Below, in pieces: positions 3,774-62,494 of a stretch of DNA of 64,000 nucleotides. Source of the stretch: Dehalococcoidia bacterium (lineage in GTDB: Bacteria; Chloroflexota; Dehalococcoidia; Plut-88900). Position 1 is the stretch's first letter; every line of letters begins with the position of its first letter. The DNA is taken from assembly GCA_965116945.1 (NCBI GenBank), contig OZ220734.1:65257-129256 (forward strand), written 5' to 3'. A program made the position numbers and the translations under genes. The notes beneath the pieces are model-generated. The model did not search any database and was not told where the DNA came from. It worked only from the letters and a program-made list of their open reading frames with translations.

Positions 3774-5756
3774 ATGCTAGTCGCCTCCAACATATCCAAG
3801 TCTTACCCTGGCAAGACACTCTTTGCCGGACTCACCTTCACCCTTGCCCCGGGAGATCGTATCGCCCTCATCGGCCCAAACGGCTCCGGCAAGACCACCC
3901 TTCTGGATATACTCGCCGGGCAAACCGAGCCCGAGACCGGCGCCATTTCACGCCGGCGTAGCGTCACCCTGGGCTACCTTAAGCAGGAACCCGAGACATT
4001 TTCAGGCAAACCTCTCTTACAGGAAGTCCTGGATGCTGACCCAGAGTTAAATAGTCTGCTGGAAGAGATTACTGTTGTGCGGGAAGACTTGGCCTCAGAG
4101 CCCGACGCTGCCCAGCAGTCAATTCTTATGGACCGGCTCAGTGATCTTGACGCCGCACTGGAAGCCGCAGGAGGAGAAGCCCGTGAGCATGAGGCCGAAG
4201 CCATTCTCTCGGGGCTCGGATTCAGGGAGAGTGACTTTGACAGACCGATGAACGAATTCAGTGGGGGATGGGTAATGCGGGCGGGACTCGCAAAGATTCT
4301 CTTCAGGAAGCCCGACCTCCTGCTTCTCGATGAACCCACAAACCACCTGGACCTGGAGGCCAACCTCTGGTTCGAAAGGTATCTGGCTTCTTATCCGGGC
4401 GGAGTCCTCGTAACTTCCCACGACCGTGCATTTCTGAACCAGACCGTGAACAAGGTCCTCGCCATTGAGCCGGACGAAATAGCCCTTCACAAGGGAAATT
4501 ACGATGATTACCTCGTGAATCGGGAGCGCACTATCGATGCAAAACTCGCCGCAGCCGCTCGACAGGAACGGGAGATTCGCCGACAAATGCGCTTCGTAGA
4601 CCGGTTCCGCTATAAGGCCCGTAAGGCCAGCCAGGTCCAGTCCAGACTAAAGCAGCTGGGAAAGATGGAAGTCATCGAGCTGCCCAGGGCGACGAAAAAG
4701 GTCAACTACTCTTTCCCCAAGCCCCCACGCAGCGGTTCGGAAGTCATAACCCTGCTCAACATCCGGAAGGCCTATGGAGACAACGTTGTCTACAAGAATT
4801 TGAACCTCACCCTTGCTCGTGGTGATCGAGTGGCTTTGATAGGTCCGAATGGCGCAGGAAAAACCACACTGCTGAAAATCCTGGCGGACGTCGTGCCCTT
4901 CGAGGGTGGTGAGAGAAAGACCGGCCACAACGTCATAACCACCTACTATGCACAGCACGTTCTGGAACTCCTCACCCCGACCCATACACTTCTCGAGGAG
5001 CTACGTGAGGCCGCTCCCTCGGAGCCCGACCAGAATCTCCGCAACACACTTGGCGGATTCCTGTTCGCCGGCGACGACGTAGATAAGCGCATTTCTGTGT
5101 TGTCAGGTGGTGAAAAGGCACGCGTGGCCCTTGCCAAGTTGCTCCTGCAGCCCAGTAATCTTCTCCTCATGGACGAGCCTACTAACCATCTAGACATCGC
5201 CTCCCGGGAGGTACTGGCCGACGCCCTTGGCGACTACCGGGGAACGATCTGTTTCATCACCCACGACCGAACACTGATTCGCCAGGTCGCCAACAAGATT
5301 ATCGAGGTGGACGGGGGTCGTATCGCCGTCTATCCGGGAGACTACGACAGCTACCTCTACCTTAAGCAGAATAAGCCGAACCAGGTCATGGCCACATCAA
5401 CACCTGTTTCTCAGAGTGAGGAGAACCCCCACGAAGTCCCGACCCTCTCCCGCAATGGCAAGTCCATCTCACCTGAAGAGCGTCAGCGCCGCACCCTCAA
5501 CACCGAGGCCCGCAAGCTCGCCAAACAGATAGAAACCATCAACGATTCCCTGACCGACCGCGAGGCTCGCATCGCCCAATTTGAAGAGATGTTCTCCAAC
5601 CCGGACCGCTTTGCCGATTCGGACCAGATCGCATCCACCGCGGAGGCATATGAAGCCCTCAAGGGTGAAACCCAGTCCCTCTGGGAAGAATGGGAAAGAC
5701 TCTCCCTGGAAGCAGAGGCCGTCGATGGCAAGCTGACGGCGCTCAACTCCAGCTAG
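3774..5756 (+). CDS. ABC-F family ATPase (two ABC domains, C-terminal coiled coil; EttA/Uup/YheS-like translation factor type)
   Basis: Two Walker A motifs ([18 protein letters not shown]). Two ABC signatures ([29 protein letters not shown]). No TM domain. AT-rich promoter-like region upstream (3629-3773). Confidence 0.85.
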
Positions 5757-24205: not shown

Positions 24206-25765
24206 ATGTTTGACTTGCTCATAACCGGCGGGCGGATAATCGATGGCACGGGCCAGACCTGGTTCCGCGCCGATGTGGGGGTGACCGGGGACCAGGTGAC
24301 AGTGATCCGCGGCGAAGCGTCGGGGCTGGAGGCGGGCCGGGTAATCGACGCCTCGGGCTGCATTGTCTGCCCCGGCTTCATCGACATGCACTCCCACTCC
24401 GATCTTTCCCTGCTCAGCGATCCGAAACATGAAGCCAAGCTCGCACAGGGAGTCACCACCGACGCCCTCGGGCAGGACGGCCTCTCCTATGCCCCGTCTT
24501 CACCCGACAAGCTGGAGCAGCTGCTCTGGTATCTCGCCGCCGTCAATGGGACCCCGCCTCCCGATGTACGGTGGGGCTCCGTCAAGGAGTTCCTGGACCT
24601 CTTCGATGAACGGGTTGCATGCAACGTCGTGTATTTCGTGCCCCACGCTGCCGTCCGAGTTGAGGCCATGGGCTGGGACAACCGCCTCCCCACCGAGGAC
24701 GAGCTTGCCCACATGCAGTCCCTCGTAGAGCAGGGGATGAAGGACGGCGCCTTCGGGTTCTCCACCGGACTTACCTACGTGCCCGGCGCCTACAGCGACA
24801 CCCATGAACTGATAGAGGTCTGCAAGAGTCTGCGGGACTCGGGGGGGATGTACATCACCCACTGCCGCTATTTCCTGGGGGATGGCCTTCTTGACCCATT
24901 CCGCGAGGCGATAGACATCGGCGCGGAGGCCGGGGTCTCGGTCCAGATATCCCACTTCCATAGCCCCGTGGATGGTATGGGTGAGCGGATGATCGGGCTC
25001 ATAGACGAGGGCCGCAACCGGGGGGTCGACGTCACCTTCGACCAGTATCCCTACCCCGCCGCCAGCACCCTGCTCCTATCAATGATTCCGGCCTGGGTCC
25101 ACGCCGGCGGCCCCTCCGCGTTCATGACCCGCATCAAGGACCCCCGAGTCCGCGAGGAGATGGCCGACGCCGTAAACCCCACCTGGGGCGGAGACATGAG
25201 CGAATACATCTTCAGCCAGATCGGCTCCGATAAGAACAAGGAGTGGGAGGGGCGGTCGCTGGAAGACCTGGCCCGGGCCTGGGACAAGTCCATCGTGGAC
25301 ACCGTTTGCGACCTGCTAATTGAAGAAAACCTGGACGTGGCCTTTGTGGCCCGGACTGGCAACCCCGACAACATCCGCACACTACTCCAGCATTCCGCGC
25401 AGATGGTCGGCAGCGATGGCCTGCTTACGGGCAACAAGCCTAACCCCCGCACCTACGGCACCTTCCCCTATCTCCTCGGTCAGTTGGCCCGAGACGAAGC
25501 CGTAATCTCTCTCGAAGAAGCCATACGAAAGATGACCGCAATCCCTGCCCAGCGCCTCGGCCTTTCTGATCGGGGCATCCTCCGCAACGGCATGAAGGCC
25601 GACATCGTGGTCTTCAACCCCGATACCGTTCAGGCCACCGCCACCTTTGAAGAGCCCGAGCAGCTGCCCATCGGCATCTACCATGTCGTCGTCAACGGCA
25701 AACTCGTCATCGACCAGGGAGAGCACACGGGAGCGCTGCCGGGTCGGGCCCTGCGGCACTCCTAG
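24206..25765 (+). CDS. N-acyl-D-amino-acid deacylase (D-aminoacylase) family amidohydrolase
   Basis: MFDLLITGGRIIDGTG...CPGFIDMHSHSD matches the D-aminoacylase N-terminus and metal site. 519 aa. Confidence 0.8.
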   Translation: MFDLLITGGRIIDGTGQTWFRADVGVTGDQVTVIRGEASGLEAGRVIDASGCIVCPGFIDMHSHSDLSLLSDPKHEAKLAQGVTTDALGQDGLSYAPSSPDKLEQLLWYLAAVNGTPPPDVRWGSVKEFLDLFDERVACNVVYFVPHAAVRVEAMGWDNRLPTEDELAHMQSLVEQGMKDGAFGFSTGLTYVPGAYSDTHELIEVCKSLRDSGGMYITHCRYFLGDGLLDPFREAIDIGAEAGVSVQISHFHSPVDGMGERMIGLIDEGRNRGVDVTFDQYPYPAASTLLLSMIPAWVHAGGPSAFMTRIKDPRVREEMADAVNPTWGGDMSEYIFSQIGSDKNKEWEGRSLEDLARAWDKSIVDTVCDLLIEENLDVAFVARTGNPDNIRTLLQHSAQMVGSDGLLTGNKPNPRTYGTFPYLLGQLARDEAVISLEEAIRKMTAIPAQRLGLSDRGILRNGMKADIVVFNPDTVQATATFEEPEQLPIGIYHVVVNGKLVIDQGEHTGALPGRALRHS

Positions 25766-25848
25766 TCCGTCCCGGTTGACGCCCACTCACGCCAGATTTA
25801 CCCTATCCCCAACGGAAGATCTACCGACCCATCAAAAGGGGTACTCGG

Positions 25849-26820
25849 ATGGCACAAGAGGTGTTTGATTTAGAGAAATTCGAAGAGCAAGGCTACCTTG
25901 TGGCCCGGGACGTCCTGGACCCCGAGGTTGATCTCGCTCCCGTCTTCACCGAGTACGAAGAGCTCCTTGAGCGTCTTTCCCACATGTGGCTTGAGAGAGG
26001 CATGATCGCCGACAGATTCGAGGGACTGCCCTTCAACGAGCGCCTGGTTAAAATCGCCGTCGCCACCCGCGGCAACTACTACCCCCACATCGACATCTCT
26101 TTCACCCAGACCGACGTTGAAGACAAGATGCCCGTCCACACTGGCCCCGCAGTCTTCAACGTCCTCAGAAGTCCCCGGCTCCTGGATGCCGTGGAGCAGT
26201 TCATAGGCCCCGAGATCTACTCCAACCCTGTCCAGCACGTCCGCATCAAACCCCCGGAGAGCGCTCTGCCGGAAGACATGCTCAGCGACTCATCCGTAGG
26301 CTACACAGCCTGGCACCAGGACCAGGGTGTCATAATTCCACAGGCCGACGAATCCGACATCCTCACCGTCTGGATTCCAGTCATAGAAGCCACGGAAGAG
26401 AACGGCTGCATGGCCGTGGTGCCCGGAAGCCACAGAACGGGACTCGTGCCCCACTGCCCGGCGAAGCCCGAACTCAAGCACGTGCATATCCTTGAAGAGC
26501 GCCTCGGGGGAGATGCCATACCCGTACCTCTTAAGCCCGGCGACGTGCTGTTCTTGCACAAGCTCACCATGCACTGCTCCCTCCCGAACAAGAGCGACGA
26601 CATCAGGTGGAGCCTCGATCTGAGGTACAACCCCACCGGTCAGGCTACCGGCCGCCCCTGGTTCCCGGGTTTCGTGGCCCGTAGCAAGTCCAATCCCGAC
26701 TCCGCCCTCACAGACCCCGACGAATGGGCCTCTCTCTGGGAGCGGGCGGGCGAAATCCTCGCCAAGGGCCCGACCCCCGTCTACAACCGCTGGAAACCCG
26801 GCGATCCTCTCTGCGCTTAA
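25849..26820 (+). CDS. Phytanoyl-CoA dioxygenase (PhyH) family Fe(II)/2-oxoglutarate dioxygenase
   Basis: WHQDQ (HxD) with downstream HRTGLVPH His. PhyH-family length and pattern (the family includes EctD-type hydroxylases). Confidence 0.65.
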   Translation: MAQEVFDLEKFEEQGYLVARDVLDPEVDLAPVFTEYEELLERLSHMWLERGMIADRFEGLPFNERLVKIAVATRGNYYPHIDISFTQTDVEDKMPVHTGPAVFNVLRSPRLLDAVEQFIGPEIYSNPVQHVRIKPPESALPEDMLSDSSVGYTAWHQDQGVIIPQADESDILTVWIPVIEATEENGCMAVVPGSHRTGLVPHCPAKPELKHVHILEERLGGDAIPVPLKPGDVLFLHKLTMHCSLPNKSDDIRWSLDLRYNPTGQATGRPWFPGFVARSKSNPDSALTDPDEWASLWERAGEILAKGPTPVYNRWKPGDPLCA

Positions 26821-27172
26821 CTCCACAATCCCGTCATTCCCGACCCTGATCCGCAATCCCTCCCTGATACTGGGCCACTCATAATGAGCACGGTCGATGG
26901 GCTGAGTGCGAGTAGGCCCCCACTCTTTAGATACATGAGGCTCAACAAAGCCTGCCGCCTCCTTTACTGTCCTTCCGAGGCAATGCGAGGAATCTCCAGC
27001 GTCAGCCCGTATCACAAGTTTCTCCCTGCGAGTCACCTACAGCGAAATCCCAAAGCTCATTGCCTTTCTCTTACTCAAGACACCCCCTATCGTCCAGGTC
27101 CCATCGCATCGGCATCCAGGCGATGCTGTACACTATGGGCCATCAAAGCCACCAACCCGGAGGTCATAACTC

Positions 27173-28381
27173 ATGCGTGATGTAGCCATTGTCAGCCCCG
27201 TTCGCACACCCGTCGGAAGGTTTGGGGGAACTCTCAGGGACATCCCCGCCGAAGATCTGGGGGCGTTGGTTATCAGGGAGGCAGTTTCAAGGTCGGGCGT
27301 AGATCCGGAGAGAATCGATGAGGTTGTCCTGGGCCACGGCTACTCCAGCGGGGAAAACCCCGCCATCGGACGACTCTGCGCCTTGAAAGCCGACCTCCCC
27401 CTCCAGGTCACCGGCTACCAGCTGGACAGGCGCTGCTCCTCGGGGTTGCAGGCCATACTGAACGCCGCAATGCTCGTCCAGACAGATAACGCAGACGTAG
27501 TCATTGCAGGCGGCGCCGAGAGCATGAGCGGCGTGGAGTATTACACCCTGGGGGCCAGGTGGGGAGGACGCTTCGGCTCTATGACCCTTCACGACCGTCT
27601 TATCAGGAGCAGAGAGGCCTCAACCCCCGAGGAGCGGTTCGGCTACATCAACGGGATGATAGAAACTGCTCAAAATGTCGCCAATTACTACGAGATTTCC
27701 AGGGAAGAGCAGGATGAATACTCTCTGCGCAGCCATCAGCGCGCCGTGGCGGCATCAGAGGCAGGCAAGTTCAAAGAGGAAATTGTCCCCGTCCCCGTAC
27801 CCCAGCGCCGAGGCCCTCCCGTTATGTTCGACACTGACGAGGGACCCCGCAAGGATTCCTCCATGGAATCCCTGGCCAGGCTGAGACCGCTGATGAAGGA
27901 CGGCTCTGTGACCGCCGGCAACGCCAGCTCCCAGAACGACGCCGCGTCTGTCTGCCTCGTAGTTGCGGCAGAAAAGCTGGATGAGCTGGGACTCGAGCCC
28001 ATGGCCTATCTGAAGGGATGGGCCTCGGCGGGGGTCCACCCGGCCTACATGGGCGTCGGGCCCGTACCCGCCGTCAACAAGCTCTTCTCCAAGACCGGCT
28101 ACGGCTGGAAGGATATCGACCTTATCGAACTCAACGAGGCCTTCGCCTCCCAGGTCCTCTCGGTTATCCACCAGTGGCAGGCCCCGAGGGACGACATTCA
28201 CGACATCCTGAACGTCAACGGCTCCGGCATCTCCCTGGGCCATCCCATAGCCGCCACCGGCGCCCGCATCCTCGCCACCATGCTCTACGAGATGAAGCGC
28301 CGGGACGCCAAACTGGGGCTGGAGACTATGTGCGTGGGCGGCGGCCAGGGCGTCGCGGCCCTGTTTGAACTGGCGGCATAG
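27173..28381 (+). CDS. Acetyl-CoA C-acyltransferase (thiolase)
   Basis: VSPVRTPVGRFGG N-terminus. NVNGSGISLGHPIAATGARIL and CVGGGQG thiolase signatures. Confidence 0.9.
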   Translation: MRDVAIVSPVRTPVGRFGGTLRDIPAEDLGALVIREAVSRSGVDPERIDEVVLGHGYSSGENPAIGRLCALKADLPLQVTGYQLDRRCSSGLQAILNAAMLVQTDNADVVIAGGAESMSGVEYYTLGARWGGRFGSMTLHDRLIRSREASTPEERFGYINGMIETAQNVANYYEISREEQDEYSLRSHQRAVAASEAGKFKEEIVPVPVPQRRGPPVMFDTDEGPRKDSSMESLARLRPLMKDGSVTAGNASSQNDAASVCLVVAAEKLDELGLEPMAYLKGWASAGVHPAYMGVGPVPAVNKLFSKTGYGWKDIDLIELNEAFASQVLSVIHQWQAPRDDIHDILNVNGSGISLGHPIAATGARILATMLYEMKRRDAKLGLETMCVGGGQGVAALFELAA

Positions 28382-28384
28382 AAG

Positions 28385-29065
28385 ATGAACGGCATCCACG
28401 ACATGGGTGGTATGCACGGCTTTGGCCCCGTGCCCCGAGAGAAGGACGAACCAGTCTTCCACGCGCCGTGGGAAGGTCGGGTCTACGCCATGGCCATCGC
28501 CGCCGGCAAGAAGCGGCTCACCGAACCCGTTGGACTGCGCGCGTACATTGAGGGCTTGGACCCCGCCCAGTACCTCGCATCCTCTTATTACGAACGCTGG
28601 ATGGGCGCCCTCGAAGACGCCCTCATAAGCAAAGGCATCACTACCAAAGAAGACCTTGACCGACGCACGGCCCACTTCGCAGACCACCCCGACACCCCAC
28701 CCCAACGCCGTGAAGATCCCGAGGAAGCTGCAAAAGTCGCCTCCTCCATCTACCGGCACAGGTCGCCCCAAAGAGAAACCGACCGACACCAGCGATTCAA
28801 CGTTGGCGACAGGGTCAGGGCACGCACCATCAACCCCACCGGCCATACCCGCCTCCCGAGATATATCCGGGGAAGGGCGGGGGTGGTTGACAGGCTCCAC
28901 GGTGTGCACAGTTTCGACGACGCCAGGTCTCGGGGCCGGGGGCACGAGCCTCAGCACATCTACAGCGTCCGTTTCGAGGCCCGTGAACTCTGGGGTAACG
29001 AGGCTCCCGAGACCGAATGCGTCTACATCGACATGTGGGACAGCTATCTTGACCCGGAGGCATAG
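28385..29065 (+). CDS. nthB: Nitrile hydratase beta subunit
   Basis: MNGIHDMGGMHGFGPVP...KDEPVFHAPWEGR and C-terminal NPTGHTR...YSVRFEARELWG...YIDMWDSYL match NHase beta. Start is 3 nt after the thiolase stop. Confidence 0.85.
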   Translation: MNGIHDMGGMHGFGPVPREKDEPVFHAPWEGRVYAMAIAAGKKRLTEPVGLRAYIEGLDPAQYLASSYYERWMGALEDALISKGITTKEDLDRRTAHFADHPDTPPQRREDPEEAAKVASSIYRHRSPQRETDRHQRFNVGDRVRARTINPTGHTRLPRYIRGRAGVVDRLHGVHSFDDARSRGRGHEPQHIYSVRFEARELWGNEAPETECVYIDMWDSYLDPEA

Positions 29066-29068
29066 CAA

Positions 29069-29689
29069 ATGAGCGACAACCACGAAGACCACGAACACGA
29101 GGCTGAGTCCTACGCCTCCCTCCGCACCAGGGCGCTGGAATCTCTCCTCGTCGAAAAGGGCTACATCACCACCGACGCCATAGACGCCCTGGTCAAGACC
29201 TACGAGGAAGACATCGGCCCGATGAACGGCGCCAGGGTCGTGGCCCGGGCCTGGGTTGATCCCGACTACAAAGCCCGGCTCCTTGACGACGGCACTGAAG
29301 CTATCGCAGAGCTCGGCTTCCAGGGCGCCGAAGGCTCCGAGATCGTCGTCCTGGAGAATGTCCCCGGCGTGCACAACGTAGTCGTCTGCACCCTCTGCTC
29401 CTGCTACCCGTGGCCCGTTCTAGGACTTCCACCAAACTGGTATAAGTCATTCGCATTCCGCTCCCGCATGGTCATCGAACCCCGGGCCGTACTTCAGGAA
29501 TTTGGTCTCGAAATTGATGAGTCCATAGAAGTCCGGGTCTGGGACAGCAATGCTGAAATCCGCTACATGGTCCTTCCCGAAAGACCCGAAGGCACCGAGG
29601 GCATGACCGAAGAGGAACTGTCGGGCCTCGTGACCCGGGACGCCATGGTCGGGGTGGCGCAGGCACGTCTGCCGGAAGCTGTGGTATAA
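29069..29689 (+). CDS. nthA: Nitrile hydratase alpha subunit, Co-type
   Basis: [17 protein letters not shown] metal-binding motif (Thr/Tyr-Pro-Trp are Co-type markers). ggagg SD present. Confidence 0.9.
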
Positions 29690-29746
29690 GTTAAGAGGCA
29701 ACGCCTCTGTAGATGGGCATGTAGTGAAGGAACGGGGGTGACTGCA

Positions 29747-29983
29747 ATGGCAACCATCGAAAAAGAAATCATCGCCTATGACCTCATGCGCGAAGAACTC
29801 GAAGCCGACCATAAGGGTGAATGGGTGCTGGTTCATGACCAGCAGCTGATCGGGCTGTTCGAAACGTTCCAGAAAGCCGCGGTAGTAGCCAGCAAGCGTT
29901 TCGGTCGTGGCCCTTACCTGATTAGAAAGATCGGGGAGGGGCCGTTACGTCTTTCATCACGTGTTATGTACGGAATCCAATAA
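29747..29983 (+). CDS. Small DUF5678-like protein (78 aa) encoded in the low-GC cassette inside the NHase operon
   Basis: KGEWVLVHDQQLIGLFETFQKAAVVASKRFGRGPYLIRKIGE fits the GxWVAI..D..V.....AY....PF(I/L).(K/R)(I/V)G pattern of DUF5678. GC is visibly lower than the flanks. Stop overlaps the next start (TAATG). Confidence 0.5.
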   Translation: MATIEKEIIAYDLMREELEADHKGEWVLVHDQQLIGLFETFQKAAVVASKRFGRGPYLIRKIGEGPLRLSSRVMYGIQ

Positions 29984-30426
29984 TGCCGTCAATAGAATGC
30001 GGCTTCCCCGGTGAACCCGATCGGTTGGCTGTCAATGGCCCACAGATAATGGTGAATGTAGGGTTTAATCCAAACTACGACCCTGATACCAACCCACGTC
30101 TGGATATACCTGAATACCTGTTTCCTGCTCTGATAGATACGGGGGCAACTGAAAGTTGTATCGATTCTACTCTAGCGAGAGCGTTGGATTTGCCGGTTGT
30201 AGATAGTGGGGCAATAGTAGGAATACACGGTCCCCAAGTAACGGACTTACATCGAGCTCATATCCTAGTTGCTGATCTAGGCATCACTTACGACGGTCGA
30301 CTTGCTGGCATTCCTATGCGTTCAAGCGGAGCTCCCTTTTACGCACTGTTGGGCAGAGATTTCTTGAGAGTTCTGACGATGGCATATAACGGAGACACTG
30401 GCTCAGTTACCGTCTCGGTGAGCTAA
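29983..30426 (+). CDS. Retropepsin-like (clan AA) aspartic protease, stand-alone, 147 aa
   Basis: ALIDTGATESCID D-T-G-A active-site motif, plus hydrophobic-hydrophobic-G (LLGRDFL) near the C-terminus. ~50% GC versus ~62% in the flanks. Confidence 0.65.
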   Translation: MPSIECGFPGEPDRLAVNGPQIMVNVGFNPNYDPDTNPRLDIPEYLFPALIDTGATESCIDSTLARALDLPVVDSGAIVGIHGPQVTDLHRAHILVADLGITYDGRLAGIPMRSSGAPFYALLGRDFLRVLTMAYNGDTGSVTVSVS

Positions 30427-30441
30427 CGATAGACAAATGCC

Positions 30442-30777
30442 GTGCCCCAACCAATAGACAACCAGATCTCCTCCATGCAAGGGCCAGAGGCCCTTCCCCG
30501 CAAGAACGGCGAGCTCGTCTTCGAGCAGCCCTGGGAAAGCCGTGCCTTCGGCCTCGCGGTCGGCCTCAGCGAGGCCGGCGTCCTCCCCTGGCCCGACTTC
30601 CGCGAAGCCCTCGTCACCGCCATCCAGGAGTCGGAGCAGCGCGGGGACGGCCGCACCTACTACGAACAGTGGGCTTCGGCCCTCGAACGCCTGGCCCTGG
30701 AGAAGGGTCTGGTGACTGAAGAGGGACTGCAGGGTCGGGCGGGGTGGCTGGAGGAGGAGTCGAGGCACGGCCATTGA
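30442..30777 (+). CDS. Nitrile hydratase accessory protein (beta-homologous activator/Co-insertion chaperone)
   Basis: ELVFEQPWESRAFGLAVGL and YYEQWASALERL resemble the NHase beta N-terminus, as accessory e-subunits do. Start is GTG 30442 or ATG 30475. Confidence 0.6.
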   Translation: MPQPIDNQISSMQGPEALPRKNGELVFEQPWESRAFGLAVGLSEAGVLPWPDFREALVTAIQESEQRGDGRTYYEQWASALERLALEKGLVTEEGLQGRAGWLEEESRHGH

Positions 30778-30862
30778 CCCTCGACCTTCCCATATCCCGT
30801 ATAATCCCACCCAGCCTATTGAACCGTCCTCACAAACGCCTGAGACAACGGAGGTAAGCCAG

Positions 30863-32035
30863 ATGCTGTTCGGCAGCGTCTTCATGTTCAGGGACCCGGG
30901 CCTTTCCACCCCCTACGACCAGCTGGTCCGGGAGATGCGGGAGTATGTCCTGGCAATGGAGGATCTGGGCTTCGACTACCTCTGGCTTGGCGAGCACCAC
31001 CTGGGTCTCGAGGGTTTCGGCAACTCTCCTAACCCGCTCATGGTCGCCGCAGACATGGCCAGCCGAACGAAGAACATGCGCATCGGCTTCGCCTGCCTGG
31101 TCCCGAGCCTCTGGCACCCGCTCCGGCTCGCCGAAGACGTCGCCACCCTTGATCATCTGACCGAGGGCCGCATAGAGATCGGCTTCGGCCGGGGCCCCTG
31201 GCCCCGGGACACGGTCCCCTACCACCCCAACGCCGACCCCAGGGACGAACCGAAGTCCCGCCAGCTCATGCGTGAAAATATCGAAATTCTGGTCAAGGCC
31301 TGGACGGAAGATGTATTCTCCCACCAGGGCGAAAACTGGACTTTCCCTCCCCCAGGTGTCCCCTGGAACACCCCCTACGCCCCACCCGACCCCCGGGCCA
31401 CCGAGAACGGCATCATCACCAAGCTTTCCGTGTTTCCCAAACCCTACCAGAAACCCCATCCTCAGCTATGGGGCACCGTGTCATCGCCCAACTCCCTAAA
31501 GCAAACGGCAGAGCTGGGATTCAACGCCGTGACCTGGAGGCCGTCGGTGCTGCAGATCAGGGAGTGGTGCGAGATATACGCCTCCATCCGGTCTGAAAAG
31601 GAGGGTCGGGAGTTTGCACTAGGGGAAGGTTGGGCCGTGCAACGGAACACCTATGTTGCCGATTCTATGGAGGAAGCCAAGGATGATGCGGAAGAAGCCT
31701 TCCTCAGGGCCCACGGGTTCGTCAGCAGCTTCCACACCGACGTCAGCCAGTCCCTCCGCTTCTACATGAACCCTGGCGAGAAACCCACCCCCGACATGAA
31801 ACTCGACTGGGACCTCTTGAACGAACGTCAGTTCCTTGCCGGCCCGCCCGACCACGTCGCCGAGAAGGTCCACGAGCTCCAGGAAGTCTGCGGTATTAAT
31901 CACCTCCTGACCAACTTCCCGGGCGGAGGAGGCATACCCCACAACAAGGTGATGCGTTCCCTGGAGCTTTTCGGCACGAAGGTCATGCCGCAGTTCAGGA
32001 AAGAGGCCAAGGCTGCGCCCGTCGCTGCGGTATAA
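30863..32035 (+). CDS. LLM-class flavin/F420-dependent oxidoreductase
   Basis: MLFGSVFMF...LGFDYLWLGEHH luciferase-like TIM-barrel motifs. 390 aa. Confidence 0.8.
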   Translation: MLFGSVFMFRDPGLSTPYDQLVREMREYVLAMEDLGFDYLWLGEHHLGLEGFGNSPNPLMVAADMASRTKNMRIGFACLVPSLWHPLRLAEDVATLDHLTEGRIEIGFGRGPWPRDTVPYHPNADPRDEPKSRQLMRENIEILVKAWTEDVFSHQGENWTFPPPGVPWNTPYAPPDPRATENGIITKLSVFPKPYQKPHPQLWGTVSSPNSLKQTAELGFNAVTWRPSVLQIREWCEIYASIRSEKEGREFALGEGWAVQRNTYVADSMEEAKDDAEEAFLRAHGFVSSFHTDVSQSLRFYMNPGEKPTPDMKLDWDLLNERQFLAGPPDHVAEKVHELQEVCGINHLLTNFPGGGGIPHNKVMRSLELFGTKVMPQFRKEAKAAPVAAV

Positions 32036-32077
32036 CGACTGCCCGATATAAACGCCTAATACTGGAAGAGGTTTGCC

Positions 32078-33847
32078 TTGCTGCCCAGAAGAAGCAAAGT
32101 AGAGCATACGCGTCTCACCTCCCTCACCGTCGACACCAACGTCCCCGTCCCCATGAGGGACGGAACGACTCTCAGGGCGGAAGTGTATCGACCCAGTGGC
32201 CCGGGCCCTTGGCCCGTTCTCCTCTCACGTATCCCTTATGGCAAGCACAACCCTAGATATCGAACCTTGCACCTTGACCTGGTCAGAGCTGCAGCCCGAG
32301 GATACGTGATGGTGGTCCAGGACGTTAGGGGCCGACACGCCTCGGACGGCGAGTGGTACCCCTTCCGCTACGACGGCCAGGACGGCTACGATACCGTGGA
32401 ATGGTGCGCCTCTCAGCCGTGGAGCGACGGCAACGTGGGGATGTTTGGCATGTCCTATCACGGCGCTTCGCAATGGCTCGCTGCGGTGGAAGCCCCTCCA
32501 TCCCTGAAGGCCATTGCCCCCGGCCTAACCTCCGCCGACCTGTTTGACAGCTGGACGTACCTGGGCGGGGCCTTTGGGCTATGGTGGACTGGCCACTGGT
32601 CCGCCGGCTTCGTCCTGGACAACATAAGAGACACGCCCGAGAACCTCACCGACGCCGTTGCAGAGACCCGAAAGTGGGCCCGTGAGCCCATGGCCCTTGC
32701 CAATCACCTGCCCGTCAGGGACATGCCCGGCCTCAAAAACGTCGCCGACTACTACTACGACTGGATGGACCACCCCACCTACGACGACTACTGGAAGAAG
32801 ATCGGGGCGTGGGACAGGCTGCCCAACGTCAAAGTGCCGGTGTTGAGTGTCGGGGGATACTACGACAGCTTCATCCGCGGCACGGTGCGCTCCTATTCCT
32901 GGCTGAGGGAAAACGCTTCCACCCCCTCCACCCGGGACCAGCAGCACATAGTCCTGGGCCCCTGGATTCACAGTCACTTGCTGCCCCCCAACTCCGGACA
33001 GCGCTATTTCGGGGGTGGGGCATCAGGGCCGGGGATCGACTACCAGGGCATGGTCCTGGCCTGGTACGACCACTGGCTCAAGGGCGAGGACAACGGCATT
33101 GCATCCGACCCCCGCGCCTACTACTTCACTATGGGCGACAACCGATGGCAGGAAGCCGAGTCCTGGCCTCCCCCTTCGGTTGAAACACCATTCTTCCTGC
33201 GCAGTAAAGGTCGGGCCAACACAAGGCATGGCGACGGCATCCTCAGTATGGACCCGCCTGGGGAGTCGGAGCCCCCTGACTCCTACCTCCACAACCCCCT
33301 CAATCCAGTGCCGACCGTCGGGGGGCCTTACGTCCGGGGCATACCCGGATTCGTCGAGGCAGGCTCCATAGAACAGGCCCCCGCCGAGACCCGTGAGGAC
33401 GTTCTTGTGTACACCTCCGCGCCAGCGGACAAACGGTTGGAGGTCACGGGTCACTTGAACTTGGTACTCTGGGCAGCATCCTCGGCCCTGGACACCGACT
33501 GGGCAGTAACCGTCAGCGTGGTCGAGCCCAATGGCTCATCCTACAACTTCTGCGAGGGAATCCTCAGAGCATCATATCGTGACTCCTTGGAATCCCCGTC
33601 GCCCATCAAACCCGACCAGCCCTACCAATACATCATAGACCTTGGCCCGACCTCCATAGCCTTCCAACCAGGTCAGTCCATCAGGCTTCGCATCGCCAGT
33701 TCCAACTTCCCCGCATTTGCCCGGAACCTCGGGACTGGGGGGCCGGTGAATAAGGAGTCCAGGGAAAATGCGGTCGTAGCCCTGCAGACCGTCCTGCACG
33801 ATGCAGCCCACCCATCGAGACTCGTGTTGCCCATCGTCGAATCCTAG
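32078..33847 (+). CDS. CocE/NonD-family alpha/beta hydrolase (S15 X-Pro dipeptidyl-peptidase-like)
   Basis: VPMRDGTTLRAEVYRP...PVLLSRIPYGK...GYVMVVQDVRGRHASDGEW...GMFGMSYHG (nucleophile Ser in GxSYxG). Confidence 0.85.
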   Translation: MLPRRSKVEHTRLTSLTVDTNVPVPMRDGTTLRAEVYRPSGPGPWPVLLSRIPYGKHNPRYRTLHLDLVRAAARGYVMVVQDVRGRHASDGEWYPFRYDGQDGYDTVEWCASQPWSDGNVGMFGMSYHGASQWLAAVEAPPSLKAIAPGLTSADLFDSWTYLGGAFGLWWTGHWSAGFVLDNIRDTPENLTDAVAETRKWAREPMALANHLPVRDMPGLKNVADYYYDWMDHPTYDDYWKKIGAWDRLPNVKVPVLSVGGYYDSFIRGTVRSYSWLRENASTPSTRDQQHIVLGPWIHSHLLPPNSGQRYFGGGASGPGIDYQGMVLAWYDHWLKGEDNGIASDPRAYYFTMGDNRWQEAESWPPPSVETPFFLRSKGRANTRHGDGILSMDPPGESEPPDSYLHNPLNPVPTVGGPYVRGIPGFVEAGSIEQAPAETREDVLVYTSAPADKRLEVTGHLNLVLWAASSALDTDWAVTVSVVEPNGSSYNFCEGILRASYRDSLESPSPIKPDQPYQYIIDLGPTSIAFQPGQSIRLRIASSNFPAFARNLGTGGPVNKESRENAVVALQTVLHDAAHPSRLVLPIVES

Positions 33848-33865
33848 AATCGGAGGACAGGTCCA

Positions 33866-34900
33866 ATGAAAGCCGACTTCAGCGTAGGAATGGGCCGAAA
33901 CCTGGCCATGTCGGAGGTGGCGTCCCACTCGAAACTTGCCGAGGACTGCGGGTTCTCCCACCTCACCATGATCGACTCCCAGAACCTCTCCCGGGACGTC
34001 TACTCCATGATGACCATAGCTGCCTTGAATACCAGGCACATCAAGATAGGTCACGGAGTCACCAACCCATTCACCCGGCACCCCTCCGTAACCGCGACCG
34101 CCTCCGCCACAATAAACGAAGTGTCGGGTGGCAGGGCATTCGTGGGCATAGGCGCGGGATTCAGCTCCGTCATCACTATGGGAATGAATGCCCGCACCAT
34201 GCAGGAGTTTCGGGATAGCGTCCAGTTCATCAAGGATTACACCGCAGGCAAAGAGGTTGAATACCACGGCTCCAAGATGCACTCAGAATGGATTCGCACA
34301 CCCGTGCCCGTCTACATGGCTTCAATAGGGCTGCGATCCCTAAGGTTGGCCGGGGAGCTGGCTGACGGCGTGATGCTGGGCGGCGTGCACCCAGTGATGA
34401 TGAAGTGGAACCTGGAGCAGATCGCCCGAGGTGCAGAATCCGTGGGTCGGGACCCTTCCGAAATCGATGTCTGGGCACGCACCGAACTCCTGGTCGCCGA
34501 CTCCAAGGAGCAGGCCCGGCGCGAGGTCGCCTCCTATGCCATGAGCTGGGCCTGCAGTTTCTACGGTTCCCTCTTCCGACGTAAAGCCCCCGAGATCGAA
34601 GACCTGCGCCAACGCATTGAGGTCGCCGAACCCGGTCTAATAGATGAGTTCAGGACAGCTTACGAGGCCTTTGACCCCTACCAACACGAAAAGACCGATG
34701 CCGATCACGCAAAGCTGGCATCCCAGCGCCTCATCGACTTCTTCCTAATGCCCGGCACCCCCGACGATATCGGTGAGCAGATATCCGGCGTCCTTCCCCT
34801 GGGCGTGAACAACATCTCCACCGTCCTCTTCACCATCATCGACAAAAAGGACATGATGCGCCGCATCAGCCGCGAAATCATGCCCTTGTTCAGCGCCTAG
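33866..34900 (+). CDS. LLM-class flavin/F420-dependent oxidoreductase (paralog of 5777..6823)
   Basis: MKADFSVGMGRN...GFSHLTMIDSQ...GRAFVGIGAG. A ccctctccc/gggagaggg hairpin follows at ~34945. Confidence 0.8.
   Translation: MKADFSVGMGRNLAMSEVASHSKLAEDCGFSHLTMIDSQNLSRDVYSMMTIAALNTRHIKIGHGVTNPFTRHPSVTATASATINEVSGGRAFVGIGAGFSSVITMGMNARTMQEFRDSVQFIKDYTAGKEVEYHGSKMHSEWIRTPVPVYMASIGLRSLRLAGELADGVMLGGVHPVMMKWNLEQIARGAESVGRDPSEIDVWARTELLVADSKEQARREVASYAMSWACSFYGSLFRRKAPEIEDLRQRIEVAEPGLIDEFRTAYEAFDPYQHEKTDADHAKLASQRLIDFFLMPGTPDDIGEQISGVLPLGVNNISTVLFTIIDKKDMMRRISREIMPLFSA

Positions 34901-62417: not shown

Positions 62418-62494
<77 letters not shown>

Follow-up and report, generated by a model that had tools for sequence, protein, structure and literature searches.

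A small-protein/retropepsin gene pair lodged in a nitrile hydratase operon of Dehalococcoidia as a candidate mobile module resembling toxin–antitoxin systems

Why does a nitrile hydratase (NHase) operon carry two small genes, one of them encoding a relative of retroviral proteases, between the gene for its alpha subunit and the gene for its accessory protein? The question is raised by a 64,000-nucleotide (nt) stretch of a Dehalococcoidia genome (assembly GCA_965116945.1, contig OZ220734.1, positions 65,257 to 129,256; hereafter the window), in which a DUF5678-like small protein and a single-lobe, retropepsin-like aspartic protease are encoded inside a cobalt-type NHase operon. A preliminary description of this DNA took the two genes for a foreign cassette and considered both a selfish, addiction-type element and a protease recruited to process the NHase subunits or the accessory protein. 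Having followed up that description, we give about even weight to the reading that the pair is a mobile module, so far undescribed, whose small protein restrains the protease in the manner of a toxin–antitoxin (TA) system, and which takes no part in NHase maturation.

The cassette is foreign DNA, about 750 bp of which is interposed between nthA and the accessory (activator) gene. Its GC content is 0.502, compared with 0.585 for the whole window; it is the lowest-GC 689-bp stretch of the 64 kb, and only 0.16% of sliding windows are equally low. The GC content at third codon positions (GC3) is 0.43 in the protease gene and 0.57 or 0.58 in the small gene, depending on whether the open reading frame (ORF) of 81 or 78 amino acids (aa) is taken, against 0.74-0.83 in the seven neighbouring genes. 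Moreover, GC3 is low in every NHase-embedded copy of the pair, not in the window copy alone. The low GC and foreign origin proposed in the preliminary description are thus borne out, as is its gene order: the ORF list and the sequence give thiolase, nthB, nthA, small gene, protease and accessory gene, all co-directional and tightly packed. The NHase identity of the flanking genes is backed by Pfam and NCBIfam profiles, and nthA contains a VCTLCSCY motif, the metal-binding motif of cobalt-type NHases. The translational coupling of the two cassette genes also holds, the last A of the TAA stop codon of the small ORF being the first base of the protease ATG in a TAATG overlap; only the distance from the protease to the accessory gene needs correction, from 16 to 15 nt. 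An alternative GTG start of the small ORF at 29738 would give the 81-aa form. No promoter-like or terminator-like sites were found in a scan of 26.8-31 kb, and since the cassette has neither a promoter nor a terminator of its own, it is expected to be transcribed within the operon, with the block forming one transcription unit. A perfect hairpin (AGAGGC-aac-GCCTCT, 29694-29708) lies directly 3' of the nthA stop codon and is kept in one related locus (L016), but it is not terminator-like because no T-run follows it.

Is the cassette peculiar to this genome? A GTDB-wide scan with NthA identified the organisms that carry the syntenic loci as Dehalococcoidia metagenome-assembled genomes; 85 loci were screened by tblastn, and six more syntenic loci (L086-L091) were found via a homologue of the small protein. 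The closest homologues of the protease, with 59-77% identity, lie on metagenomic contigs that share the gene order arginase, amidohydrolase, PhyH, thiolase, nthB, nthA, small gene, protease, accessory gene, luciferase-like monooxygenase, S15 peptidase and a second luciferase-like monooxygenase, the last three of which also follow the accessory gene in the window. Among the 19 syntenic loci, 16 have the pair between nthA and the accessory gene, and three have an empty site, where the accessory gene starts 4 nt (L015 and L021) or 2 nt (L018) past the nthA stop codon. In the tblastn screen the pair was not found in about 60 more distant NHase operons, where the activator gene follows nthA directly or at a few tens of nt. 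In trees of the flanking genes, L015 and L021 stand beside L016, the window locus (W), L002 and L004, while L018 is the sister of L001; the empty sites are thus nested inside the clade. The ratios of nonsynonymous to synonymous divergence (dN/dS, Nei-Gojobori) are 0.06-0.12 for the small gene and 0.06-0.11 for the protease, similar to those of the flanks, and both genes are functional and under purifying selection. Because the synonymous divergence (dS) of the small gene is about that of the flanks and GC3 is low throughout, the data fit an old, inherited insertion that on at least two occasions disappeared or gave way to an empty allele. The non-native GC of all copies, the three empty relatives and the roughly 60 operons without the pair argue for an old polymorphic insertion rather than an ancestral part of the operon. 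The insertion claimed in the preliminary description therefore stands as regards foreign composition and empty sister sites, but the cassette is not private to this genome; of the two marks by which an ancestral operon component would be recognised, the pair is indeed common in related operons, but its GC is not native to them.

The junctions bear on how the cassette moves. They have no terminal direct or inverted repeats and no target-site duplication, and no recombinase lies nearby, so that a transposon- or integrase-borne insertion was rejected. The last codons of nthA differ among loci, reading EAVV before the stop codon in clade I and L001, EAVGRG with an extra spacer in clade III, and EAVGS at the empty sites, which differ from the EAVV alleles in the final 2-3 codons. 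Given these differing left junctions and the lack of terminal repeats and of a recombinase, movement between genomes probably took place by homologous recombination through the conserved flanks.

The cassette is polymorphic and exchangeable at the NHase site. Across the clade the small gene is 76-91% identical, while the protease ranges from 38 to 77% identity and falls into four types: A (W, L001 and L002), B (L003, L004, L017, L019, L020 and L086-L091), C (L080) and D (L016), with between-type identities down to 38-40%. In L004 a B-like protease stands beside a small gene and flanks of clade I, so that the protease tree and the flank tree conflict, and between W and L002 the dS of the protease is 1.78, compared with 0.63-0.73 for the flanks. 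L016 (4670-5704 of that locus) contains a nested double cassette, all of it between nthA and the accessory gene: in the first unit a small gene (82 aa) stands orphaned, with some 30 codons left of the decayed protease behind it (ending in LDRLVLNGPYAWMQVGMDND and a stop codon), and the second is a divergent, complete pair (small gene 5005-5262, protease 5240-5704). In addition, the C-terminal tails of the small proteins vary in step with protease types C and D.

What do the two genes encode? The protease scores above the Pfam gathering thresholds of Asp_protease_2 (24.7, cut-off 24.3) and RVP (21.4, cut-off 20.7) and slightly below that of gag-asp_proteas (26 vs 28.2); no further Pfam family is matched at E<=0.1, and the NCBIfam model TIGR03698 (clan_AA_DTGF, the AF_0612 family) is missed by a wide margin (13.5 bits vs a cut-off of 57.35, E 0.07). 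In an alignment of 54 homologues, D52-T-G-A55 (nt 30136-30147) and L122-L-G-R125 are invariant. Of 72 unique pairs, 67 have the motif D[TS]GA; in the remaining five it is missing from the called ORF, which in several cases is short. A profile built from the 54 homologues matches HIV-1 protease (1e-4) and DDI1 (1.2e-3) in the PDB, and the AlphaFold2 model (predicted local distance difference test, pLDDT, 92.6) has the single-lobe beta-barrel fold of retropepsins, with simian foamy virus (SFV), equine infectious anaemia virus (EIAV) and feline immunodeficiency virus (FIV) proteases, the RVP domains of DDI1 and Rickettsia APRc as the best Foldseek matches (probability 1.00). Based on these profile, motif and fold features, the protein is assigned to the clan AA retropepsin-like proteases, in keeping with the retropepsin and its D-T-G-A motif in the preliminary description, and its motifs and predicted fold suggest that it is catalytically competent. 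A single-lobe fold implies that the protease should be an obligate homodimer. The protein is predicted to be acidic and soluble, with no signal peptide and no transmembrane (TM) segment. Its N-terminal extension of about 45 aa is specific to the family (MPxxxCGF...LLVxxGPTxxVxIGFDP). This extension (29983-30120, residues 1-45) aligns weakly to the IGRNLLTQIGxTLNF segment of tethered HIV-1 protease dimers, which is the C-terminal part of the preceding monomer in those constructs; judging by this alignment, the extension may imitate a strand element of the dimer interface or of the terminus.

The small protein is less readily placed. It scores 17.2-17.3 bits against DUF5678 (PF18929; E 0.005), below the gathering threshold of 23.2, and the alignment covers 45 of the 49 profile positions, including the GxWVxV hairpin, a helix and FG..P.hh. 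However, 30 of 77 small-protein homologues match DUF5678 at E<0.01 (best 4.3e-6), and for this reason we regard the small protein as a probable distant relative of DUF5678, in what looks from its sequence like a separate subfamily marked by RFGRGPYLIR and a C-terminal LPASVMY tail. The DUF5678 assignment made earlier thus holds as a distant relationship, although the window protein itself is below threshold, as are most of its homologues, none of which has a precomputed Pfam annotation. RFGRGPYLIR (residues 51-60) is invariant among the homologues, and the tail, with the consensus LPASVMY, reads LSSRVMY in the window protein. The structural model (pLDDT 87) consists of a helix, a beta-hairpin, a helix, a strand and the C-terminal tail (alpha-beta-beta-alpha-beta), and neither sequence nor fold searches returned a significant match among solved structures. 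Because the small protein is well folded and its C-terminus is conserved rather than hypervariable, the precursor of a ribosomally synthesised and post-translationally modified peptide (RiPP) encoded with its leader peptidase was rejected. The protein collection also contains a small protein 100% identical to that of the window (P0054); it yielded no protease match above 77% identity, perhaps because the protease of the source genome is lacking from the index.

Does the pair exist outside NHase operons? Immediately upstream of each more distant protease homologue (35-52% identity) lies a homologue of the small gene, 80-87 aa long and in most cases overlapping by 14 nt, in genomic surroundings unrelated to one another. 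Searched with a profile, 1.84 billion cluster representatives yielded 366 relatives of the small protein at E<=1e-10; at E<=1e-3 the number rose to 1820. In a survey seeded on the small gene and comprising 98 small genes, drawn from metagenomes, from viruses and from the loci collected before, a protease is directly downstream in 83, most of them overlapping, commonly by 4-32 nt; six small genes are cut by contig ends and nine have no intact protease. At least four of these nine keep recognisable N-terminal protease remnants, and in all at least five orphan small genes of this kind are found (L016, L114, L117, L131 and L172). The identities of small protein and protease co-vary (r=0.58). The 113 neighbours represent as many as 99 Pfam families, with no conserved third partner, and the hosts of the pair range in GC from 0.46 to 0.71. 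The conserved pairing of small protein and retropepsin suspected in the preliminary description is therefore real, and the pair, which recurs in hundreds of unrelated bacteria, is a unit of two genes that stands on its own, is under selection and moves horizontally. Rare in-frame fusions of the two genes (P0238 and P0278, 208 and 249 aa) and tandem small-small proteins (P0174 and P0281, 168-206 aa) also exist; the fused forms may be genuine Rosetta-stone proteins, or they may be artefacts of a frameshift in the 14-nt overlap.

These contexts bear on the idea that the pair was recruited to NHase maturation, with the protease processing NthA, NthB or the accessory protein and the small protein acting as a chaperone. 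The position of the pair between nthA and the activator gene is fixed clade-wide, both genes lie in the same predicted transcription unit as the NHase genes, and 6 of the 77 small-protein homologues have a weak match to HypC/HupF (best E 1.4e-4), which would make the arrangement loosely analogous to HypC and the maturation endopeptidase of [NiFe]-hydrogenases. Nevertheless, the vast majority of pairs are far from NHase genes, and the pair is absent from all of the roughly 60 other NHase operons screened. In the three empty-site operons, nthB, nthA and the accessory gene are intact without the cassette, their lengths and dN/dS (0.05-0.16) being unchanged, and in the others the composition of the cassette marks it as foreign. 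The resemblance to HypC is local, being limited to the GxWVLVH hairpin, and the structural model does not show an OB barrel, so that a HypC-like metallochaperone was rejected. We consider recruitment to NHase maturation highly improbable, and the empty-site sisters together with the non-NHase contexts rule it out as the main explanation. Among the functional ideas put forward earlier, the selfish, addiction-type cassette is thus favoured, whereas recruitment for NHase processing is not supported.

How, then, might the two proteins act together? In the reading we favour, the module entered the short spacer between nthA and the accessory gene in an ancestor of this Dehalococcoidia clade. The downstream gene would encode a cytoplasmic retropepsin whose homodimer forms an Asp-Asp active site and which in its free form would do harm or at the least be potent. 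The small protein, encoded upstream and coupled to it in translation, would bind it stoichiometrically and keep it inactive, possibly with the conserved hydrophobic C-terminal tail inserted into the substrate cleft, or else by blocking dimerisation of the protease. The outcome would be a type II TA-like or abortive-infection-like pair with an aspartic protease as its effector, and in the NHase operon the module would be parasitic or neutral, standing outside the maturation of the cobalt enzyme. A protease-inhibitor pair is suggested by the order, sizes and coupling of the genes, by their strict pairing without a third partner, by their patchy distribution, by the diversification of the effector and by an asymmetric decay, in which orphan small genes stand beside dead proteases and the converse, a protease without a small gene, was not seen in about 11 protease-first contexts.

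Several observations weigh against this reading. The protease-first contexts are a small base for the asymmetry, the larger survey being seeded on the small gene. In the clade the small gene is better conserved than the protease, which reverses the usual pattern, since antitoxins commonly evolve faster than toxins. A DNA-binding domain would be expected of an autoregulating type II antitoxin, but none was recognisable in the small protein. In addition, tblastn searches with both proteins against PLSDB and with the protease against INPHARED gave no match, and IMG/VR yielded 8 loci only, which is unusual for a highly mobile TA system; since there was also essentially no match of the pair to PHROG profiles, a plasmid or phage origin was rejected. 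Neither protein matches PADLOC-DB v2 at E<=1, so that neither is known as a defence gene and a known defence system was rejected. Most neighbours are ordinary metabolic genes, so that an enrichment in defence islands would be putative at most. Finally, long retention under purifying selection in 16 of the 19 operons fits a host-beneficial role as well.

Such a role would be that of a regulated protease that benefits its host and is merely prone to horizontal transfer, with the small protein serving as an adaptor, as a pro-segment or chaperone acting in trans, or as a dedicated substrate. We regard this as a substantial, if rather unlikely, rival; it accounts for strong purifying selection and for retention over dS>1, and sits well with a small protein that has no DNA-binding fold and with neighbourhoods made up mostly of metabolic genes. 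The rare fused ORFs recall a pro-domain or a polyprotein, and RimB, like other cytoplasmic retropepsins known from bacteria, has specific partners on which it acts. However, a host function of this kind would be difficult to reconcile with neighbourhoods that share no conserved third gene or substrate, with the patchy presence and absence of the pair among sister genomes, with cassette swapping and nested replacement at one site, with orphan small genes beside decayed proteases but not the reverse, and with GC that persistently differs from that of the host.

The surroundings of individual copies raise a further alternative. One copy adjoins genes for a DNA methylase, an SMC/AAA_21 ATPase and SLFN_AlbA_2, and another lies in a metabolic region; a third adjoins a giant HEPN_Swt1-DUF499 gene and a BrnA antitoxin gene, a fourth stands among SLFN_AlbA_2, AAA_21, GmrSD_N and HEPN genes, and a fifth adjoins Fic. 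Defence or mobilome neighbours (AAA_21/AriA-like, Cas3, integrase, IS1595, SLFN_AlbA_2, GmrSD, HEPN, BrnA and Fic) are a minority. The pair could be a stand-alone anti-phage sensor-effector, in which infection displaces or degrades the small protein and the protease then cleaves host or phage proteins. Copies beside SLFN_AlbA_2/AAA_21/GmrSD_N/HEPN, DUF499 with HEPN_Swt1, Cas3, AriA-like ATPases and an N6_N4 methylase-ResIII set speak for this alternative, as does the rapid diversification of a protease whose ancient alleles are kept at one locus. The lack of a PADLOC match and the preponderance of neighbourhoods unrelated to defence speak against it, and we hold it to be quite unlikely; its mechanism overlaps with restraint of the protease by the small protein, from which it is inseparable by sequence alone. 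In L180 (1465-7640), a distant copy of the pair (86 aa and 170 aa) is tightly flanked by an N6_N4 DNA methyltransferase gene on one side and a ResIII-type gene of 1038 aa on the other, where it may be a passenger or a component of what seems to be a restriction or defence operon.

Going beyond restraint of the protease by the small protein, one may ask whether the pair founds a family of its own. It is possible, though doubtful, that these are the first members of a TA or abortive-infection family with a homodimeric, HIV-protease-like effector whose cleft is plugged by the tail of the small protein and whose alleles are kept by diversifying selection at fixed sites in the chromosome, the NHase operon being one. 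The regulation of retroviral proteases would then have a counterpart in prokaryotes, encoded in trans, which might also shed light on how retroviral proteases originated; we suggest this just as tentatively.

The coordinates of the cassette and of the genes around it are collected in Table 1. The cluster around the NHase genes (24206-34900 of the window; also L001-L004) is kept across the Dehalococcoidia clade and comprises arginase-family, amidohydrolase, PhyH dioxygenase, thiolase and NHase genes, two luciferase-like monooxygenases and an S15/PepX-type peptidase, which suggests a dedicated pathway for nitrile/amide catabolism or for degradation of a natural product. Some members of the clade have an extra ORF of about 290-330 aa without a Pfam match, or a gap of about 1 kb, between thiolase and nthB (L001:3378-4367, L086:2723-3589, L088:2722-3588 and L003:3346-4365); this segment is absent from the window and is a second insertion polymorphism of the operon. 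A tRNA-Pro(GGG) gene (62418-62494, minus strand) is the sole RNA gene detected in the 64-kb window, where no other Rfam family scored above threshold.

Table 1. Features of the NHase operon and its cassette in the window (positions count from the first nucleotide of the window)
Feature	Position	Strand	Basis or remark
Thiolase	27173-28381	+	ORF list, sequence
nthB	28385-29065	+	ORF list, sequence
nthA, Co-type NHase alpha subunit (left flank)	29069-29689	+	Pfam NHase_alpha 2.9e-89; TIGR01323 6.5e-92
Left junction/spacer	29690-29746	+	6-bp hairpin, then purine-rich stretch (GAAGGAACGGGGGTGA) 5' of the small ORF
Small protein, 78 aa from ATG	29747-29983	+	DUF5678-like; proposed cognate inhibitor/antitoxin
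Single-lobe retropepsin-like aspartic protease, 147 aa	29983-30426	+	Proposed effector/toxin
Right junction, 15-nt spacer to the accessory GTG	30427-30441	+	Sequence
NHase accessory (activator) gene (right flank)	30442-30777	+	TIGR03889 1.3e-20

If the proposed mechanism is true, an aspartic protease would join the known range of toxin and defence effectors, part of the DUF5678 superfamily would gain a function, and a natural proteinaceous inhibitor of a retropepsin would be at hand. The family is tractable, with about 366 sequence clusters at E<=1e-10. Moreover, a single metabolic operon with an empty site, four protease alleles and a nested double insertion constitutes a natural experiment, and this allele series allows the persistence and turnover of selfish modules in essential-looking operons to be studied where no integrases are involved. 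The locus is also a warning for annotation, since a gene inside an operon need not belong to the pathway.

How does the pair compare with what is known? The arrangement was said in the preliminary description to be undescribed, and in agreement with this a full-text literature search, outside the scope of which much subscription literature falls, found no paper on the function of DUF5678 or on a retropepsin TA or defence pair. The best structural matches of the window protease are retroviral and retrotransposon proteases and the RVP domains of DDI1, with which it shares a single lobe, the DTGA loop and the helix motif hh-G-R-D/T-F-L. In contrast to these, it is a stand-alone, bacterial and cytoplasmic protein that has an extension of about 45 aa, is part of no polyprotein and has no UBL/UBA domains, and members of its family have a DUF5678-like partner encoded by a gene of its own. 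Rickettsia APRc, Pseudomonas RimB and RloA are likewise bacterial single-lobe aspartic proteases of clan AA. However, APRc is membrane-embedded (PMC4140852), while RloA is secreted with a signal peptide and RimB works with the ATP-grasp ligase RimK (PMC12239564); the window protease is soluble, with neither signal peptide nor TM segment, and RimK, RloB and RloC are not among the neighbours. The small protein shares the core hairpin-helix region with DUF5678 and adds RFGRGPYLIR and the LPASVMY-type tail. DUF5678 itself has, to our knowledge, no known function.

With type II TA systems such as MazEF, RelBE and Xre-COG2856, the pair has in common two small, co-directional genes, the first of about 80 aa, with a stop/start overlap. 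Further likenesses are strict pairing with no third partner, a patchy, mobile distribution, GC below that of the host, some defence or mobilome settings, and orphan first genes beside decayed second genes. Xre-COG2856 systems have a protease-like toxin, and we know of no described TA family in which a clan AA (retropepsin) aspartic protease is the toxin. The pair differs from type II TA systems in that its putative antitoxin has no ribbon-helix-helix (RHH), helix-turn-helix (HTH), AbrB or Phd-type DNA-binding domain, and in that it was not found in the plasmid and phage collections searched. Because the DNA-binding feature is absent and toxicity and neutralisation are putative, we do not file the pair within that class; by analogy, it would work like a type II TA module. 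The operon that hosts it is by comparison conventional: as in canonical cobalt-type NHase operons (nthB-nthA-activator, for example Rhodococcus nhlBAE), the flanking genes, their order and the VCTLCSCY motif are canonical. The difference is that there the activator gene follows nthA closely, whereas here the foreign cassette stands between the two.

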